Positions 16,001 to 38,285 of a stretch of DNA of 64,000 nucleotides are shown piece by piece; position 1 is the first letter of the stretch; each line of letters opens with the position of its first letter. The notes below the pieces were generated by a model that worked only from the letters and a program-made list of their open reading frames with translations, was not told the DNA's origin and ran no database searches. Origin of the DNA: a virus (lineage: Duplodnaviria > Caudoviricetes); the IMG/VR virus record IMGVR_UViG_3300042327_001260, positions 64,045 through 128,044 of that record. One strand, written 5' to 3'. The translations under genes were made by a program, and so were the position numbers.

Positions 16001-16155
16001 GTAGAGGTTTTTGTAAAACACTAAACCAAGTAAAAAATCAAACAGGTTTAGTTGAAAGACAACAAAAAGTATTAAATCATTTTATTCAAAAATGTGAAAA
16101 TAAGTTTGGAAACGAGCCTATAAAAAAATATAGACAAGTTAGATTTAATGATTAA
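12901..16155 (+). CDS. Large helical protein with central transmembrane segment; putative virion or ejection protein
   Basis: 1084 aa. Hydrophobic WVQLWFYAKVVPTIIYSIIYGMVAGAM; internal leader-like KESIIKKIRKIIMEE. Confidence 0.85.
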   Translation: MKKNLLLEVERNLTLMGISKKVNLINEGRGEFSNRIWGLILQIDDATAAGIQKRATNLTKMLNNTNTSILESRKRALKEEIERMIREGKTVDQVIEYLERELTPEVMSTLEKKISSLQLIDDAVRRSLYDDLVDTNSLLRGEVLEDAEQEIANLVDDPRFIDLDFTNQIKALNDFKTQLADMYSKYFGIESTSKILNDIIEEPIEKARTEVSTTGVKTLDKQTEESIELLKKSDKWLGDVEKGISVPTRLQKIAMLNELLAQLKDNAVKKLGILSDNIKIKNGIDDLIEKEIKLIESEVAGLKSTLKTGWKNFAPRLSDFAMRVTTSWQNNLDKAKQEIDDLVVAMGSTDDIGPELAKTIRSKFAGLVSHMKAPDIKKVWSDLEKLIREAYGEVEGLSIINMIKSEGEEKDWIEFLVKESEQGGDSQLTGYVARMGQMCVGWYGYISYLIRGMKDTMPVWNKVWWKRFTNWGLVGHTTTLREFMDSFIKAQYAIPWLKLGKIKGYNPQSLMLKWVQLWFYAKVVPTIIYSIIYGMVAGAMARVAQPSPEEIAEMTPEEKELYDVSKNGLSLIWYTMKEGFLENFDLFMSSNEDVKKAVAEVKKNGGLINTEWKWYLTEFFDTFIPVEPMILEIMGWVDAGLKTPFEKTWLERAKNKVLEKKSELEEELSPIKEKFKKQLDNIDKSHEQKKFETNYSNSHHGLTQEEVDMLTKWTSSRDAADGSTEVWVDDRYSDDKYFLTAGTKENGGSPKYAYWNDNGKLRSLKELAQKLSQEPVKESIIKKIRKIIMEEMTGKKFGDDNFKHWKDTFTFKSVDEKNPGQYKEVKINMEDVMDRINHFRKKYDEDDAFVRAVIDTHEDVVKVMFTKDLAHLQENFKPKGLAIILQQIRESRGEMEIWSVSRPANGNWFLVKGDYTPNQLANMDLEKKEPQPKEKEVDSRTEDDLKKKEELALHNLKSNEKEGINDLPKQVRDKVNEKLSKGWTTEEPFFAFEEFYEVSEINSVFNDKIKIYKLNPSEEFFKALVKESASVRVSRGFCKTLNQVKNQTGLVERQQKVLNHFIQKCENKFGNEPIKKYRQVRFND

Positions 16156-18181
16156 AAAAGTTTACATAACTGAATCTGAAAAAGAAAATATATTAAAACT
16201 ACACAAAAAGTTAAACGAAGAAACAGGTTTATCTATTGGTGGTAAAGTTTTGGATATTATAACTAATGAACCTGTTTTTGATGCAACAGTTACTCTAACT
16301 TTGTCGAATGCAACCAAAGGTTTAGCAAAAACAAATGCTGATGGTAATTTTAAATTTGATGGTTTAAATTCAGGTGAATATGTTATTTCTGGATCGGCAA
16401 AAAATCAAGGTTATATCACTATAAGTAATAACATAAATTTAGAGGATAAAGATATTTTAGATGTTCAAATTTTATTATCCAAGAGTATTAAGGATTTACA
16501 AGAGGTAGGAGTTACTGTTAGTAAATTAACATTTTTAGATTTTATATTTGTAGATAGTGACGGTAAAGAAATACCAAACGTATCATATTCTTTATATGAT
16601 AAAAAGAAACTTATAGGTACTTACACATCAGAAACGGGTAAAAGCACATTAATTTTTAATTCTTTTGATTACCAAGTTAAAAAAGGCGAATCAGTAACAT
16701 ATCCTGAAAGTAAAGAATACGGTTATTTTTATAGTCAAGGTAAAAGTTGTGAAGAAGAAAAAGAATTAATAATTGACATCAAATCGGATGGATATATTGG
16801 GGATAAACAAAAAATAAACTTTTGTTTAAATAATGGATCATACAGTACTTACATTACAAAAGAAAATGGTAACGTTACTGTTAAACCAACTAATGGTGAT
16901 AATGGAATACCAACAAAAACCTCAAATTCTTTAGAAAGTAATATATTTAAAATTGAACTTTTAAAACCTCAAATATCTGCAAAATTATTAACTTTTGATA
17001 CTGACGATGAAATTTTACCAAATGTTAAAATAGACATTTATAAAGATAAAGATCGTCAGGAACTTTTTCAATCATTAGAAACTAATCAAAGTGGGGAGTC
17101 GTATTTAAATATTACTACAGGTAATTTTGATTTATTTAACGACGATAATGATCCGGTTAAAAAAGTAAGACTGTTTTTTGATGTTAGAAAAGATGGGTAT
17201 AAGACGTTATCAGGATACGGAACCATTAAATATGGAAAAGTTGATGAATACTCATGGAATCTACCACCAATTAAACAACCAAAAGTTAAACAACCAAAAC
17301 AACCCAAAGAGATAACAATAGGGCAGTGTAGAAGATTCACAAGAAAATACCATAGAGGTTTGGTTTCATTAATTAAAAGAAAAAAAACAATTGATGAATT
17401 AGGTGGTAATGACGCTATAGAAGAAGCAAGAACACAAGTTCAATGGTGTTTTTTAAGATATAAAGATGACTACTCAAATAACATGAGAAAGCTGATAACT
17501 AAGTTAACAAATGTGCCACCTAAATTTGATATTTTCGAATTAAGGTTCACTCTTGATCAACAAAGAGATATTTATAAGGAAAGTAAAGACATGGGAATAT
17601 CACACACAATAAGAAAAGTAATTTCTGAACAATCAGAGAAAAAATCACTTTTATTAAAAGAATCACAAATAATTAAAAATAGACTATTATTTGTATATAA
17701 TTCTTCAAATAGAAGAACATTAAAAAATAACTTGTTAGGTGAAAGTAACGAATTAGTTAATAGTGGGTACGATAGAAGATTAGTTAAGGAAAATTTTTTA
17801 GAAATAATGAATACCGTTAAGGATTCAGGGAAATTTTTAAGTGACGTAAAGGCACAATTAGGACAAAAAATTGCAGATACAGTAAAAGATAAACAACAAG
17901 AACATGAAATGATACTAGGAGCCTTTAATGAATTGGATCCAGCAATAGTAGAAAGAGCGTTTAAAGAAAACAGAGTTGACGAGTTAAGTGAGATTATTGC
18001 TAAAAAAGCATTAGAGAACTATAAAACACAATTTGGTGAAGCGGGAATTTTTGGTTCAATGGTTGCAAGTGTAGACATTGAAAAATTTAAAACTGAGGTT
18101 GCAAAATTGATTCAAACATCAATAGATGCGGTTTCAAATGATTTGGACAGTAAAGTCCAAGATGCCGTTACAGAAGATTAA
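16148..18181 (+). CDS. Leader-bearing protein with carboxypeptidase-regulatory-like (SusC N-terminal extension type) Ig domains
   Basis: IGGKVLDIITNEPVFDATVTL..TNADGNFKFDGLNSGEYVI..GY...LQEVGV. Confidence 0.75.
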   Translation: MIKKVYITESEKENILKLHKKLNEETGLSIGGKVLDIITNEPVFDATVTLTLSNATKGLAKTNADGNFKFDGLNSGEYVISGSAKNQGYITISNNINLEDKDILDVQILLSKSIKDLQEVGVTVSKLTFLDFIFVDSDGKEIPNVSYSLYDKKKLIGTYTSETGKSTLIFNSFDYQVKKGESVTYPESKEYGYFYSQGKSCEEEKELIIDIKSDGYIGDKQKINFCLNNGSYSTYITKENGNVTVKPTNGDNGIPTKTSNSLESNIFKIELLKPQISAKLLTFDTDDEILPNVKIDIYKDKDRQELFQSLETNQSGESYLNITTGNFDLFNDDNDPVKKVRLFFDVRKDGYKTLSGYGTIKYGKVDEYSWNLPPIKQPKVKQPKQPKEITIGQCRRFTRKYHRGLVSLIKRKKTIDELGGNDAIEEARTQVQWCFLRYKDDYSNNMRKLITKLTNVPPKFDIFELRFTLDQQRDIYKESKDMGISHTIRKVISEQSEKKSLLLKESQIIKNRLLFVYNSSNRRTLKNNLLGESNELVNSGYDRRLVKENFLEIMNTVKDSGKFLSDVKAQLGQKIADTVKDKQQEHEMILGAFNELDPAIVERAFKENRVDELSEIIAKKALENYKTQFGEAGIFGSMVASVDIEKFKTEVAKLIQTSIDAVSNDLDSKVQDAVTED

Positions 18182-18237
18182 TCTTAATGGCTTGAATTAG
18201 GAATCAAGAGGTAGTTCTCTTTATTCATAAACCTTAA

Positions 18238-18253
18238 AGAAAGGGAGGTGTTC
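18238..18253 (+). promoter_or_regulatory. Extended Shine-Dalgarno-like element with no downstream ORF
   Basis: AGAAAGGGAGGTGTTC is complementary to the Bacteroidota 16S 3' tail as I recall it (GAACACCUCCUUUCU). Confidence 0.45.
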
Positions 18254-18260
18254 TAAATCT

Positions 18261-18295
18261 AAGAAAGGTGTTCGTAAGAACACCTTTTCTTTTTT
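18261..18295 (+). terminator. Intrinsic terminator
   Basis: AAGAAAGGTGTTC-GTAA-GAACACCTTTTCTT followed by a T run. Confidence 0.85.
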
Positions 18296-18310
18296 AGGAT
18301 ATTTATGAAT

Positions 18311-18664
18311 ATGGAATTTTTTATTAGAAAAAAAGCAACATTACCAATATTAGAAGTCGACATTATAAAAGACGGTAGATTAGACTATAATCATAAATTG
18401 AATCTTAGTGCAGGTACAATTACTTTTTCTATGAGAGACGTTGATACAGGATTTTATAAGGTGACGAATGGTACCTGTTATTATTCCACTGAAAACGAAA
18501 GTGTTTATTATCAGTTTACAAAAAGAAATACTTCAACCATAGGCAGATATGAAGGTGAGTTTAATATCACCACAAGCCAAGGGTTGGTTATATTACCTCT
18601 CAGAGATAGACTTTATATAAACGTTATAGACTCATTTGTGGATCCAGAATTTTGTTGTAGGTAA
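18311..18664 (+). CDS. Small Ig-like protein, BppU N-terminal-like
   Basis: F.IRKKATLP.LEV...LSAGTITFSM...VYYQF..T..IG.YEGEF.I pattern. Start is 18305 or 18311. Confidence 0.65.
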   Translation: MEFFIRKKATLPILEVDIIKDGRLDYNHKLNLSAGTITFSMRDVDTGFYKVTNGTCYYSTENESVYYQFTKRNTSTIGRYEGEFNITTSQGLVILPLRDRLYINVIDSFVDPEFCCR

Positions 18665-19142
18665 CATTATTAAAGTAAATCCTTTCTTTGGTTCCTACAA
18701 TTTGTTTATACCACTTATTTTTCTCGTCCATCCAAACATAAGGATCTTCAGGATTTTCATCCCAACCATGTTTCGAGTAATATTCATTATCTTTACGTAA
18801 TAGATTTGCTCTGTGAGACGAATGGAACTCTTCGTTACCCAACCAATGTGGTAATACAAATTCACCGTCAATTGTCTCGTATTCCATGTTATTTTTAAAT
18901 CCACGCGATTTCCAAACATCAATACAATCATTGTAGTATTGTTTAAGTGCATTTACATAGTCTCTCCACATAACAGAACAAGGATGTGATGTCCACCCTT
19001 TATATGGTTGTCCGTTCTTTTTTGGTCTACCTGTGATGGCTGAAATAATTTGATAAGCCTCAACACGTTGCTTACCTAAACGTTTGTTGTCTAATGACTC
19101 TAATGATTTTCTAAAATCAGAATATGGAAGAAATGTTTGCAT
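18624..19142 (-). CDS. Pyrimidine-dimer DNA glycosylase family protein (MSMEG_6728/DenV-like); start revised
   Basis: MQTFLPY..LDNKRLGKQRVEAYQI..HPCSVMW..PHWLG..FHSSHRANLLRKD. Confidence 0.88.
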   Translation of the reverse strand: MQTFLPYSDFRKSLESLDNKRLGKQRVEAYQIISAITGRPKKNGQPYKGWTSHPCSVMWRDYVNALKQYYNDCIDVWKSRGFKNNMEYETIDGEFVLPHWLGNEEFHSSHRANLLRKDNEYYSKHGWDENPEDPYVWMDEKNKWYKQIVGTKERIYFNNVTYNKILDPQMSL

Positions 19143-19147
19143 ATATA

Positions 19148-19178
19148 CAAATTTACATATATTTATTAATATTACAAA
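19148..19178 (-). promoter_or_regulatory. Bacteroidota primary-sigma promoter
   Basis: TTTG-N19-TAAATTTG, ending 5 nt before ATG 19142. Confidence 0.8.
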
Positions 19179-19185
19179 ATTTTTT

Positions 19186-20478
19186 ATGAAGATTATTTTA
19201 ACAGAAAACCAAATAAAACAACTACAGTTAGAAATTAATAGAAAAAAAACTAATGATAAAATAATTGAAGAAATTAAGTTTATCAAAAAAGTTCTTTTTT
19301 CTTATACTAATACGTCCACACAATCAGAAAAGGATAAATTAAAATTTGTTGAAAAATATATAAATGAGATAAATTCTAAATTAGGAATTCATAATAATCT
19401 TTTTGAGGTTAAAAAAAATAACATTTACATTAACGAGAATACCGTAAAAAGTAAAATTAAAAACTCGTTTAATTTAATTGAGAGCAGAATTAATAACCTT
19501 GGTTTAATTAAAGAGGCGGGAGAAGTTGTAAATCCTATACAACAAGTTGATTTTGGAACCCAAACTCCTGAAACCGTAAAATCAGATACAGAAATTGCTT
19601 CTGATAATGATGTTGCGGAATTTTGGGCGAAATGTGGAATATCCGAACCTAAAGCTGAAGATTCAATTGAATTTAAAGACAAGCAAATTGGTAAATGTTT
19701 TAATAAAATAATAAAAGATGATCCAAGTTACCAAAACGCATTTCAAAAAGGGTGGAGTAACTTAAAAGATTCAGGATTATTAATGAGTGGTGCAACAATT
19801 GCTGCTAAATATTTTGGGTTTAAATTAAAAGAAAAAAAAGAAGAGAAAGAAGGCACAAAACCAGCAGAAGGGAATAAATTTTTAAATTGGATAAAAAGTT
19901 TTAAATGGTCAGCATTTTTTGAAGGGTTAAGAAATGTTTTACAAAGTTCAGGAGGACAATTAATTCAAAAGTTTCTTTCATCAACAGGTATAGGGGCGAT
20001 TGGGGTTACCGCAGCATGGGGAATTGTTACTCTTTATGATATTTGGAATTTGATAAAAGGTACAGGTAATTGGTTTAATTTAATTATTGATATTGTATCA
20101 ATTGCTAGTGGTGGTTGGATTGGTAATAAGTTATCTACATTAAAAAACATGGTTGCAAATAACATAGACGATGTTGTAAAAACAATATCAAAAAATAAAA
20201 ATGTAAGGGCGATTATAAAACCTGTGTTAAAACAAATTTCTAATTTAGATAGTTGGTTAAAAAGTACTATGGAATGGGCTAAAAAGAAATTAAATGCCGA
20301 TTGGTTAGGTGAAGCGGGAAGTAGTGTAAGTACCGTTACCACTGACTTATCTTCAAAATTAGAGACTGAAATTGCAAAGGCTGAAAGTGAAGAAAAAACC
20401 GGAGGTGAGGAAATACCTCCACCACCTACAAATACAAGTAATGAGGAAATACCTCCACCACCCACGAGTAATGGGTAA
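19186..20478 (+). CDS. Leader-bearing membrane protein with C-terminal EIPPPPT repeats (start revised)
   Basis: Leader MKIILTENQIKQL; Gly-rich hydrophobic hairpin; two EEIPPPPT copies. Confidence 0.8.
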   Translation: MKIILTENQIKQLQLEINRKKTNDKIIEEIKFIKKVLFSYTNTSTQSEKDKLKFVEKYINEINSKLGIHNNLFEVKKNNIYINENTVKSKIKNSFNLIESRINNLGLIKEAGEVVNPIQQVDFGTQTPETVKSDTEIASDNDVAEFWAKCGISEPKAEDSIEFKDKQIGKCFNKIIKDDPSYQNAFQKGWSNLKDSGLLMSGATIAAKYFGFKLKEKKEEKEGTKPAEGNKFLNWIKSFKWSAFFEGLRNVLQSSGGQLIQKFLSSTGIGAIGVTAAWGIVTLYDIWNLIKGTGNWFNLIIDIVSIASGGWIGNKLSTLKNMVANNIDDVVKTISKNKNVRAIIKPVLKQISNLDSWLKSTMEWAKKKLNADWLGEAGSSVSTVTTDLSSKLETEIAKAESEEKTGGEEIPPPPTNTSNEEIPPPPTSNG

Positions 20479-21345: not shown

Positions 21346-21374
21346 AAAACCCACTTAAAAGAGTGGGTTTTTTA
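21346..21374 (+). terminator. Intrinsic terminator, copy 1
   Basis: AAAACCCACTTAAAAGAGTGGGTTTTTT. Confidence 0.85.
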
Positions 21375-21619: not shown

Positions 21620-21649
21620 AAAACCCACTTCAAAAGAGTGGGTTTTTTA
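21620..21649. terminator. Bidirectional terminator, copy 2, between the lipoprotein and tmRNA
   Basis: AAAACCCACTTCAAAAGAGTGGGTTTTTT. Confidence 0.85.
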
Positions 21650-21651
21650 AT

Positions 21652-22060
21652 TGGTGGACCTAGAGGGCTCCGACTCCCTCGTCCGGCTCATCTTGTTTAA
21701 AAGACGACTACATGTTTAGGTTGGAGTTTTCTAACCCCCCAAAATATTTGATTTTTAACTTGATCGAAAACAAGGTTAGTTTGTTCTTCACTATCGTAAA
21801 CCAACAACCAATAGACGACTCGATTTTGGGTTCAGTCGTATTCCACCTTAGTCACTTCTGTTCCTGAGCGTATGTGAACCGGCTCGCGTATCCGTAAACT
21901 TCTTAAGCTACAGTTACTTCTTGAGTTGAGATTAGACCCAAAGTCTCAAGGTTGTTTAGCACATTGCCATTTGTAGTGTGAATCAGTTTTTAACGAGATT
22001 AATTCAGTCCCGACATGCTTCTTTTATTCAACCAATGCCCGTCAAATCCAATATAGGCCC
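21652..22060 (-). ncRNA. ssrA: tmRNA (409 nt), predicted tag (A)GNVLNNLETLGLISTQEVTVA*
   Basis: 5' end GGGCCTATATTGGATTTGAC pairs with 3' TAGGTCC-ACCA and contains G3.U. GCATG/CATGT helix; tag ORF at 21968-21903. Confidence 0.92.
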
Positions 22061-37843: not shown

Positions 37844-38112
37844 AAAAATTTTTTAATGGTTTAGGTGGGTTGTTCAAGGATAGTAGTGGAAATGCGTCTT
37901 CAAAAAGATTCATAGGAATACTTTGTGGTGTTTCTCTTTGTATTACTTTGTATGTGAACAGTTATTCTCACGGTGATATCAAACCTTCAGACACACTTGT
38001 TAATGCGGTTGCAATGTTAGCTTTTGGGTGTTTAGGGTTAACCTCCACAGAAAAGATTTTTGGAAAAAAATCAGAAGAAAAAAAAGAAGACAATAATCAA
38101 GAAAACATTTGA
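37840..38112 (+). CDS. Small two-TM membrane protein, holin-like
   Basis: SSKRFIG plus two hydrophobic helices and a charged C-terminus. Confidence 0.65.
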   Translation: MKKFFNGLGGLFKDSSGNASSKRFIGILCGVSLCITLYVNSYSHGDIKPSDTLVNAVAMLAFGCLGLTSTEKIFGKKSEEKKEDNNQENI

Positions 38113-38285
38113 TTTTTTTGTTTGTGTTTTGCTTTTTGAATTTGAGCCCTTCGTATAACGGAGGGTTTTTTGTATTCCTTCCTTTCTTGTAATTGTTGTA
38201 TTTGTTTTGTTTTATAAATTTTAAATTTATAATTCTTTAATGCTTGCTCAATAGACTTTTCATTTTTAACCGGTACTATAATCAT
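38097..38285 (-). CDS. rpsU: Phage-encoded 30S ribosomal protein bS21
   Basis: IIVPVKNEKSIEQALKNYKFK..KTKQIQQLQERKEYKKPSVIRR matches the Bacteroidota-type bS21 pattern. Confidence 0.9.
   Translation of the reverse strand: MIIVPVKNEKSIEQALKNYKFKIYKTKQIQQLQERKEYKKPSVIRRAQIQKAKHKQKNQMFS

Follow-up and report, generated by a model that had tools for sequence, protein, structure and literature searches.

Ribosomes of Bacteroidota hide the anti-Shine-Dalgarno (anti-SD) sequence in a pocket formed by bS21, bS18, and bS6, and this sequence is exposed mainly in subunits that are deficient in bS21. The ribosomes of Bacteroidia are SD-blind, and the sole known use that translation makes of the anti-SD in these bacteria is autoregulation of bS21 via the extended SD of rpsU. 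Two other kinds of RNA provide useful points of comparison: the 3'-UTR-derived or stand-alone bacterial small RNAs, in which a single-stranded seed lies next to a terminator, and 6S RNA, which is a decoy of the RNA polymerase holoenzyme. In Flavobacteriales, rpsU is the only gene with a strong SD, which forms 9 to 13 consecutive pairs at −14 to −21 kcal/mol and is used by ribosomes lacking bS21 (McNutt 2023, PMC9976891; cited here, like the other papers, from part of its text). A 13-bp SD-anti-SD helix collides with bS21, which is released or occluded, and loss of bS21 is part of initiation when the ribosomes are replete (Arpin 2026, PMC13000457). Phages that encode bS21 have been speculated to encode something that aids the exchange of this protein (McNutt 2023, PMC9976891). 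A last system of interest is the STAB-SD of the Bacillus thuringiensis cry3A mRNA (PMC4113751), which, like the phage element described below, is SD-like and non-initiating. It is thought to bind the 16S end of the 30S subunit, and it lies near the 5' end of a long mRNA in an SD-using Firmicute, where it blocks the 5'-3' exonuclease RNase J1.

The stretch of DNA that we analyzed (the window) is 64,000 nt long and is the second half of a 128-kb virus record, ~43% complete and with 30% G+C. The size, the habitat type, and the presence of a reverse-strand bS21 gene near structural genes match the freshwater Bacteroidetes bS21 phages, as these are described in the part of Chen 2022 (PMC9723584) cited here. 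That the phage encodes bS21, as an earlier reading of the window (the sequence-only reading) had it, is correct. The nearest cellular bS21 proteins are found in Flavobacteriaceae (52 to 55% identity) and Prevotella (47 to 49%), and all eight matches among cellular proteins are from Bacteroidota. In a crude call of 162 genes, GGAGG, AGGAG, and GAGGT are absent from positions −22 to −4 in all 161 usable upstream regions, which are A-rich. The phage therefore translates without SD sites, like Bacteroidia. This extends to the bS21 gene, the leader of which pairs with the 16S tail at only −6.2 kcal/mol, and an SD is absent from six of six phage bS21 leaders. The features of the locus and of the record are as follows.

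16148 to 18181, + strand: upstream gene, 677 aa; CarboxypepD_reg-like domain (PF13715, E 4.3e-11); a single close homologue (76% identity).
18201 to 18226, + strand: P1 hairpin, GAAUcAAGAG / CUCUUuAUUC with loop GUAGUU; 10 pairs, alignment columns 3-12 with 19-28.
18227 to 18260, + strand: conserved linker, AUAAACCUUAAAG - seed - UAAAUCU; mostly single-stranded.
18238 to 18253, + strand: seed, extended SD-like AGAAAGGGAGGUGUUC, complementary to the whole 16S 3' tail and without a start codon after it.
18261 to 18295, + strand: intrinsic terminator, AAGAAAGGUGUUC GUAA GAACACCUUUUCUU and then a U run; 14 pairs.
18300 to 18306, + strand: TATTTAT, the most enriched 7-mer, candidate phage promoter motif of the downstream gene.
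18311 to 18664, + strand: downstream gene (MEFFIRK...), 117 aa from the conserved ATG 18311, a start fixed by 20 aligned homologues; tail-fibre-like module.
21652 to 22060, − strand: phage tmRNA (RF00023, 80.5 bits, full length).
38097 to 38285, − strand: phage bS21 gene (PF01165, 40 bits); leader without SD-like sequence.

The starting point of this analysis was AGAAAGGGAGGTGTTC at 18238-18253, which is indeed located in a noncoding gap, of 123 nt, between the stop of the 16148-18181 gene and the next gene. The sequence-only reading had described it as an orphan SD-like element able to form 13 consecutive pairs, one of them G·U, with the 16S tail of many Bacteroidota. This orphan SD-like seed is real. 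We read the 16S 3' ends of all six rRNA loci in three Bacteroidota genomes (two Flavobacteriaceae and one Prevotella), which were chosen because the closest relatives of the phage bS21 were found there. All six loci read ...GGCTGGAACACCTCCTTTCT, as the sequence-only reading had it, and the tail in these three genomes is GAACACCUCCUUUCU (in a longer form, ...GGAACACCTCCTTTCT). The register of 13 pairs is correct, and RNAduplex finds a better one, with 15 Watson-Crick pairs that engage the whole 15-nt tail, a single bulged G, and an energy of −22.4 kcal/mol. The seed is predicted to be only ~50% unpaired (mean unpaired probability 0.54). When every 18-mer of the 128-kb record is considered, on either strand, the seed is the top match to the tail, followed by a site at −19.0 in coding sequence. 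None of 30 dinucleotide-Markov simulated genomes reaches −22.4, but the best of them is at −22.1, which makes this test alone only modest. This narrow gap, by which the match alone lies only marginally beyond simulated genomes (−22.1 versus −22.4), is what speaks for a relic or a chance SD-like sequence without a function of its own. A shuffle test allowing up to three mismatches does not discriminate either (1 match versus 0.42 expected, with at least one match in 34 of 100 shuffles). The stronger argument against chance is conservation, to which we return below.

As the sequence-only reading had also noted, no start codon follows at SD spacing. There is no ATG, GTG, or TTG within 3 to 13 nt after GGAGG, where AUC-UAA is found instead. 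The seed thus has the anti-SD complementarity of a functional SD start site but not the ATG, GTG, or TTG ~4 to 12 nt downstream that would open a conserved ORF, and no reading frame through the seed is conserved on either strand across relatives. Two ways of rescuing an initiation function were considered and rejected. A hidden small ORF could only be the AUC-UAA pair, a nonconserved AUA frame, or, on the minus strand, an ATG frame that is likewise nonconserved. A split ribosome-binding site, in which the hairpin would be bridged to reach the next ATG, would leave ~20 nt or more after the hairpin.

The closest counterpart of the seed is the extended SD of rpsU. In three Flavobacteriaceae, the rpsU leaders read AAAGAAAGGAGGT, 9 nt before the ATG, and pair with the tail at −17.6 to −18.4 kcal/mol; the phage reads AAAGAAAGGGAGGT. 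The core wording of the two is nearly the same, AAAGAAAGG(G)AGGU, and each is the sole such site in an otherwise SD-less genome. The seed shares with the rpsU extended SD, as described in the cited parts of PMC9976891, PMC13000457, and Naeem 2026 (PMC13000453), at least 13 pairs to the 16S tail and an energy within or above the rpsU range. By the definition of an rpsU-type SD taken from McNutt 2023, the phage element qualifies in having 9 to 13 or more consecutive pairs with tail nucleotides 1530/1532-1544 and in being by far the strongest site, but it is not located in the initiation region of bS21. Unlike the rpsU SD, it has neither a start codon nor an ORF after it, the phage bS21 gene is 20 kb away and itself SD-less, and a hairpin and a terminator enclose the element. 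In addition, the pairing of the seed extends over positions 1530-1533 (GAAC), which the three rpsU leaders leave uncovered.

These features suggest, tentatively and from sequence, a possible reading that we prefer although its chances fall somewhat short of even: the RNA would mimic the rpsU extended SD without offering a start codon, pair with the host 16S 3' tail, and either trap bS21-free 30S subunits or promote loss of bS21. The linker would reproduce, minus the start codon, the type of extended SD reserved for rpsU in SD-blind Bacteroidia, and the RNA would pair through it with the 3' tail of host 16S rRNA on 30S subunits. Since it offers no start codon, the resulting complex would be unproductive, and the RNA would compete with the host rpsU mRNA. 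This competition might block the resupply of host bS21, and/or the RNA might help to strip host bS21 from ribosomes. Either effect would favor the phage bS21, which would be made from its SD-less leader. Because most Bacteroidia 30S subunits hide the tail, binding might be slow.

The mimicry reading makes a prediction about the host. Of 201 Bacteroidota genomes searched, 84 gave a match; the exact tail is present in 15 of these, GGAAUACC in 13, and GGAUCACC in 56. The seed still pairs with the GGAAUACC tail through G-U and has one mismatch to the GGAUCACC tail. With the exact tail in only 15 of 84 matching genomes, the decoy reading predicts a host with a GAACA-type tail, such as the Flavobacteriaceae that we examined. 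An alternative anti-SD, UCUCA, is described for the Chryseobacterium group (McNutt 2023, PMC9976891).

The perfect 15-mer complement of the tail, AGAAAGGAGGTGTTC, occurs in at least 117 stretches of viral contigs, of which 80 loci were listed and scored. In 48 of the 80 listed loci, a start codon and an ORF follow at normal spacing, which identifies them as ordinary SDs of SD-using phages. Most of the other 32 look coding and were set aside together with 10 that belong to an unrelated SSB-terminator element, and no second Bacteroidota lineage was found among the 80 listed loci. In the 10 SSB-like loci (L106, L113, L121, L125, L129, L137, L141, L142, L154, and L166, in unrelated viral contigs of ~45% G+C), AGAAAGGAGGTGTTC and the TAG stop of an SSB-like gene (...DDIPF*) overlap. 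A terminator lies 10 nt beyond, with no start codon in the interval, and the gene after it uses an AAGAGG SD of its own. In these SD-using phages, an orphan SD is again combined with a terminator, in an arrangement unrelated to the first.

The seed is the proposed functional center of a conserved phage noncoding RNA of about 95 to 125 nt, which consists of the P1 hairpin, a largely unpaired linker, and an intrinsic terminator. In P1, 6 of the 10 pairs are altered on both sides among relatives, and the loop reads GUAG[U/A][U/A]. The terminator, which has the properties of an intrinsic terminator, is paired in 100% of cells across 31 sequences, two of its pairs being altered on both sides. When both helices are taken together in the 31-sequence alignment, 93% of cells are paired and 8 of 24 pairs are changed on both sides, a result equaled by none of 500 shuffles, while helices slid along the alignment as controls are 48 to 62% paired. 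The many G-U pairs on the + strand indicate that the structure belongs to the RNA read from left to right. The two helices with compensatory changes bear out the structured RNA that had been proposed around the element, and one of its short hairpins, AGAG/CTCT, lies inside the conserved 10-pair P1; the other, CTTGA/TCAAG, is present in the window but is not kept in relatives.

The terminator reuses the sequence of the seed, as had been noticed, its 5' arm repeating AGAAAGGTGTTC. Apart from a 4-nt insert (GAGG), seed and arm repeat each other directly, and the 3' arm can pair with either. As for the proposed mimicry of the 16S tail by the 3' arm, the window does show a resemblance, but relatives share it only in part; L220, for example, has GAGTCACC. 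In this part of the window (18238-18291), the 3' arm together with the U run (GAACACCUUUUCUUUU) looks like a 16S tail that lacks two bases. The upper part of the terminator arm varies in relatives, and thus, only ACCUUUUCUU is constant.

The direct repeats raise the question of whether the role of the module is confined to cis, as a 3'-end unit. P1 and the terminator would then stop transcription and protect the upstream mRNA, the seed would serve as an alternative partner of the 3' arm that tunes termination or decay, and part of the conservation would come from a recombination joint of tail-fibre cassettes. The location in a variable tail-fibre region fits such a joint, as does the mosaic junction, where upstream genes differ among relatives while the module stays. 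We nevertheless regard this account as unlikely. The terminator arm changes freely with compensation (TATCC, TATTCC, TGACTC, and others), but the seed keeps GG[A/G]GGTGTT and is accordingly more than a duplicate of that arm. The alternative 5' arm would still yield a terminator and hence no switch. Moreover, distant homologues of the downstream gene do without the module (none of 68 has it), and a cis role leaves unexplained why the insert creates an exact complement of the anti-SD.

The conservation of the element was assessed in a search of public collections by flanks only (16 nt, a gap of 10 to 30, and 11 nt) because selecting on the element itself was to be avoided. This yielded 45 further copies, 6 in viral and 39 in metagenome loci, and the window and L010 bring the total to 47 loci, with 35 sequences that are distinct. 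For 29 of the 35 relatives, the adjacent downstream protein shares only 51 to 60% amino acid identity (66 to 72% at the DNA level), whereas the un-anchored center is 76 to 100% identical. With a covariance model, we find exactly one copy in the record of the window, scoring 101 bits, and one of 112 bits in the relative G008, but nothing better than E 0.25 in four distant records (G004-G007). A lone GGAGGTGTTC in G006 was rejected as antisense to a gene. Neither 10-mers nor the covariance model reveal a second copy of the module in the 128-kb record.

As an unbiased denominator, we retrieved 80 homologues of the downstream protein by protein pattern. The covariance model hits 11 of these 80 loci, that is, 11 of the 12 at 52% identity or above and none of the 68 below. 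Seven of the 11 are new and more divergent; retained in them are CATAAAC, a run of Gs before TGTT[C/T], ATCTAAG, and a terminator that covaries. All 11 copies have CATAAAC and ATCTAAG without any change. In the 69 module-less loci, the upstream region contains no tail-complementary sequence, the best energies having a median of −6.9 kcal/mol and a minimum of −13.7. Pairing with the tail is predicted at −19.2 to −22.5 kcal/mol for 12 distinct linker variants (46 loci) and at −15.9 to −22.9 for the seven divergent copies, which were found independently of the RNA sequence. These values mostly equal or exceed those of the rpsU leaders (−17.6 to −18.4); in one relative, L213, GGAGA breaks a core pair and the energy falls to −15.9. 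GGAGG is often GGGGG in relatives, which places a G-U in the core. The element is thus conserved, with covariation, in related phages. A relic or chance sequence would have to be kept in 46 loci and seven divergent copies, beside neighbors only 51 to 60% identical and with no ORF in any of them, and given these data, such an origin is very unlikely.

In a substitution test, the changes seen in relatives are not significantly milder for tail pairing than expected (mean ΔΔG 1.4 versus 2.08 for all possible changes, 4290 of 20000 random sets being as mild), and for transitions alone there is no difference (9448 of 20000 random sets as mild). In addition, the seed is matched in conservation by CAUAAAC, AUCUAAG, and the GUAG of the P1 loop, none of which tail pairing accounts for. 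That conservation reaches well beyond the 15 tail-complementary nucleotides, and that the test does not single out tail pairing, would both fit a trans-acting small RNA or a protein-binding RNA with another target, for which the 16S match would be incidental. The G-rich seed might then act on a C/U-rich site of a host or phage mRNA, or the linker might be bound by a phage or host protein. The small-RNA architecture, with a 5' hairpin, an unpaired conserved seed by the terminator, and in 10 of 35 contexts a promoter-like motif, suits this alternative as well. We consider it somewhat unlikely, since no comparably pairing site exists elsewhere in the phage record, where the reverse complement of the seed is present at most as a 9-mer. 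In two Flavobacteriaceae genomes (4.1 and 4.5 Mb), taken as host-like, the only matches to the 13-nt pattern GAACACCYCCYTT, the complement of the seed core minus its extra G, are the four 16S ends. If incidental, a 15/15 match to the one RNA end whose regulatory role is known in these hosts would be highly coincidental.

The RNA has the hallmarks of a small regulatory RNA: conserved structure, no ORF, a terminator, and an unpaired conserved seed. It shares with bacterial small RNAs its hairpin, seed, intrinsic terminator, and lack of an ORF, as well as its position in a 3' UTR or behind a promoter-like motif of its own; its proposed partner, however, is rRNA and not an mRNA. None of the Rfam 15 families matches the module at the gathering threshold. 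The best is BTnc231 (20.1 bits versus 80.4), and the hits to Bacteroides BTnc231 and FopS are both subthreshold (20 bits versus 80 and 56). In the scan at gathering thresholds, the tmRNA is the sole match, with nothing at the site of the module. Two near-identical terminator-like hairpins (AAAACCCACT...) flank the tmRNA, at 21346-21371 and 21620-21646. The likeness to 6S RNA is one of concept, in that an RNA poses as the nucleic acid on which a large machine normally acts and keeps that machine unproductively engaged. Machine, fold, and level of evidence all differ, binding by the phage RNA being a proposal. As for STAB-SD, the phage seed is equally a non-initiating SD-like sequence, but it is found just before a terminator, 8 nt upstream of the hairpin, and not at a 5' end, and in a host group that normally hides the anti-SD (comparison based on part of PMC4113751).

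The upstream gene is probably structural. In the window, the module follows its stop by 19 nt, which makes it a 3' UTR, and the RNA would be made there as the 3' end of the upstream transcript. For the window, the description of the element as part of a 3' UTR is thus apt. Among relatives, however, 10 of 35 distinct upstream contexts have TATTTAT 35 to 42 nt before P1, right after the upstream gene and with no ATG behind it. In those 10 contexts, the module looks like a small RNA gene running from promoter to terminator, and in some relatives, the RNA probably has its own promoter. TATTTAT is the top 7-mer in the 50 nt before genes, present in 48 of ~169 genes versus 3.8 expected (12.6-fold, for TATTTAT(A)), with a modal start at −21. 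It is also found before distant module-less homologues and before six of six phage bS21 genes. On the analogy of T4 late promoters, which we take it to resemble, TATTTAT may be a phage promoter. Since it lies between the terminator and ATG 18311, the downstream gene probably has its own promoter, and since the motif ends 4 nt before this ATG, the mRNA would be leaderless or nearly so. In four metatranscriptome runs stored as contigs only (depth ~1-3), 5 to 11% of sampled words are present. A 240-nt contig of a relative (eight differences) spans 17998-18237 and ends just before the seed; such a contig shows no transcript ends, strand, or level.

The downstream protein ends with ...FCC[R/T] in the window and in 3 of 16 translated relatives (L017, L021, and L034). 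In the other 13 (L018, L020, L023, L024, L028-L030, L033, L035, L044, L052, L058, and L059), the frame stays open beyond the 117-aa domain, across a linker rich in Pro and Thr, up to where the fetched locus ends, which makes for a longer protein. Inside the tail-fibre module of the window, a gene on the opposite strand (18624-19286, −) encodes a pyrimidine-dimer DNA glycosylase (Pyr_excise, E 2e-21), presumably T4 DenV-like. At this position, G008 has a 287-aa fibre-like gene instead (L076 2008-2871). The G008 gene next after the downstream homologue is fibre-like by reading of its N terminus, with no family match.

The arrangement of terminator and TATTTAT bears on the suggestion, made in the sequence-only reading, of a ribosome-dependent termination switch. 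In its antitermination form, a 30S subunit at the seed would cover the 5' arm of the terminator and polymerase would read into the tail-fibre gene. The spacing between seed and hairpin is near constant (it varies by 1 to 2 nt, the arm starting 12 to 13 nt after GGAGG) and short enough for a 30S subunit to overlap. However, TATTTAT follows the terminator here and in all relatives and is also present in module-less homologues, so read-through is not needed. No antiterminator helix is predicted or covarying, and capture of a 30S subunit would have to outpace the co-transcriptional folding of the hairpin. The locus therefore has neither the mutually exclusive terminator and antiterminator helices nor the dependence on read-through of an attenuator or riboswitch leader. 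With an apparent promoter of its own for the downstream gene and no antiterminator in the consensus fold, the idea of a switch loses ground, and we find antitermination quite improbable. Overall, the premises of the sequence-only reading (complementarity, a phage without SDs, conservation, and a structured RNA) have held up, and it is the termination switch that has been weakened.

Among RNA-bearing records of at least 40 kb, six of seven carry bS21 on the same fragment, 20 to 32 kb away and on the opposite strand; in the remaining one, a 92-kb record, bS21 was not found. A 222-kb relative without the RNA gives no bS21 hit. All these records belong to a single clade, and the association is therefore not independent evidence.

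Within the reading that we prefer, that of a start-codon-less rpsU mimic, a more active role can be envisaged, which is doubtful at present. The RNA would be a bS21-exchange factor, its 15-bp helix pulling the tail from the bS21/bS18/bS6 pocket, evicting host bS21, and out-competing the rpsU mRNA. Because it has no start codon, it would fall off after the eviction, leaving the site to the abundant phage bS21. If true, the composition of the ribosome would be remodeled by an RNA that poses as an autoregulatory mRNA of the host itself.

Full-text searches, which covered main texts, turned up no published account of the RNA. The part of Chen 2022 (PMC9723584) cited here has no mention of intergenic, noncoding, or terminator elements, and that of Arpin 2026 (PMC13000457) has no occurrence of the word "phage." Why many aquatic phages carry bS21, and how the phage bS21 would displace the host protein, are the questions on which the RNA may bear. 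A gene-less phage copy of the rpsU site is a concrete candidate for a helper of bS21 exchange. Should the decoy idea fail, the module still represents a structured RNA family that is new, widely distributed, and under strong constraint in the jumbo phages of freshwater Bacteroidota.
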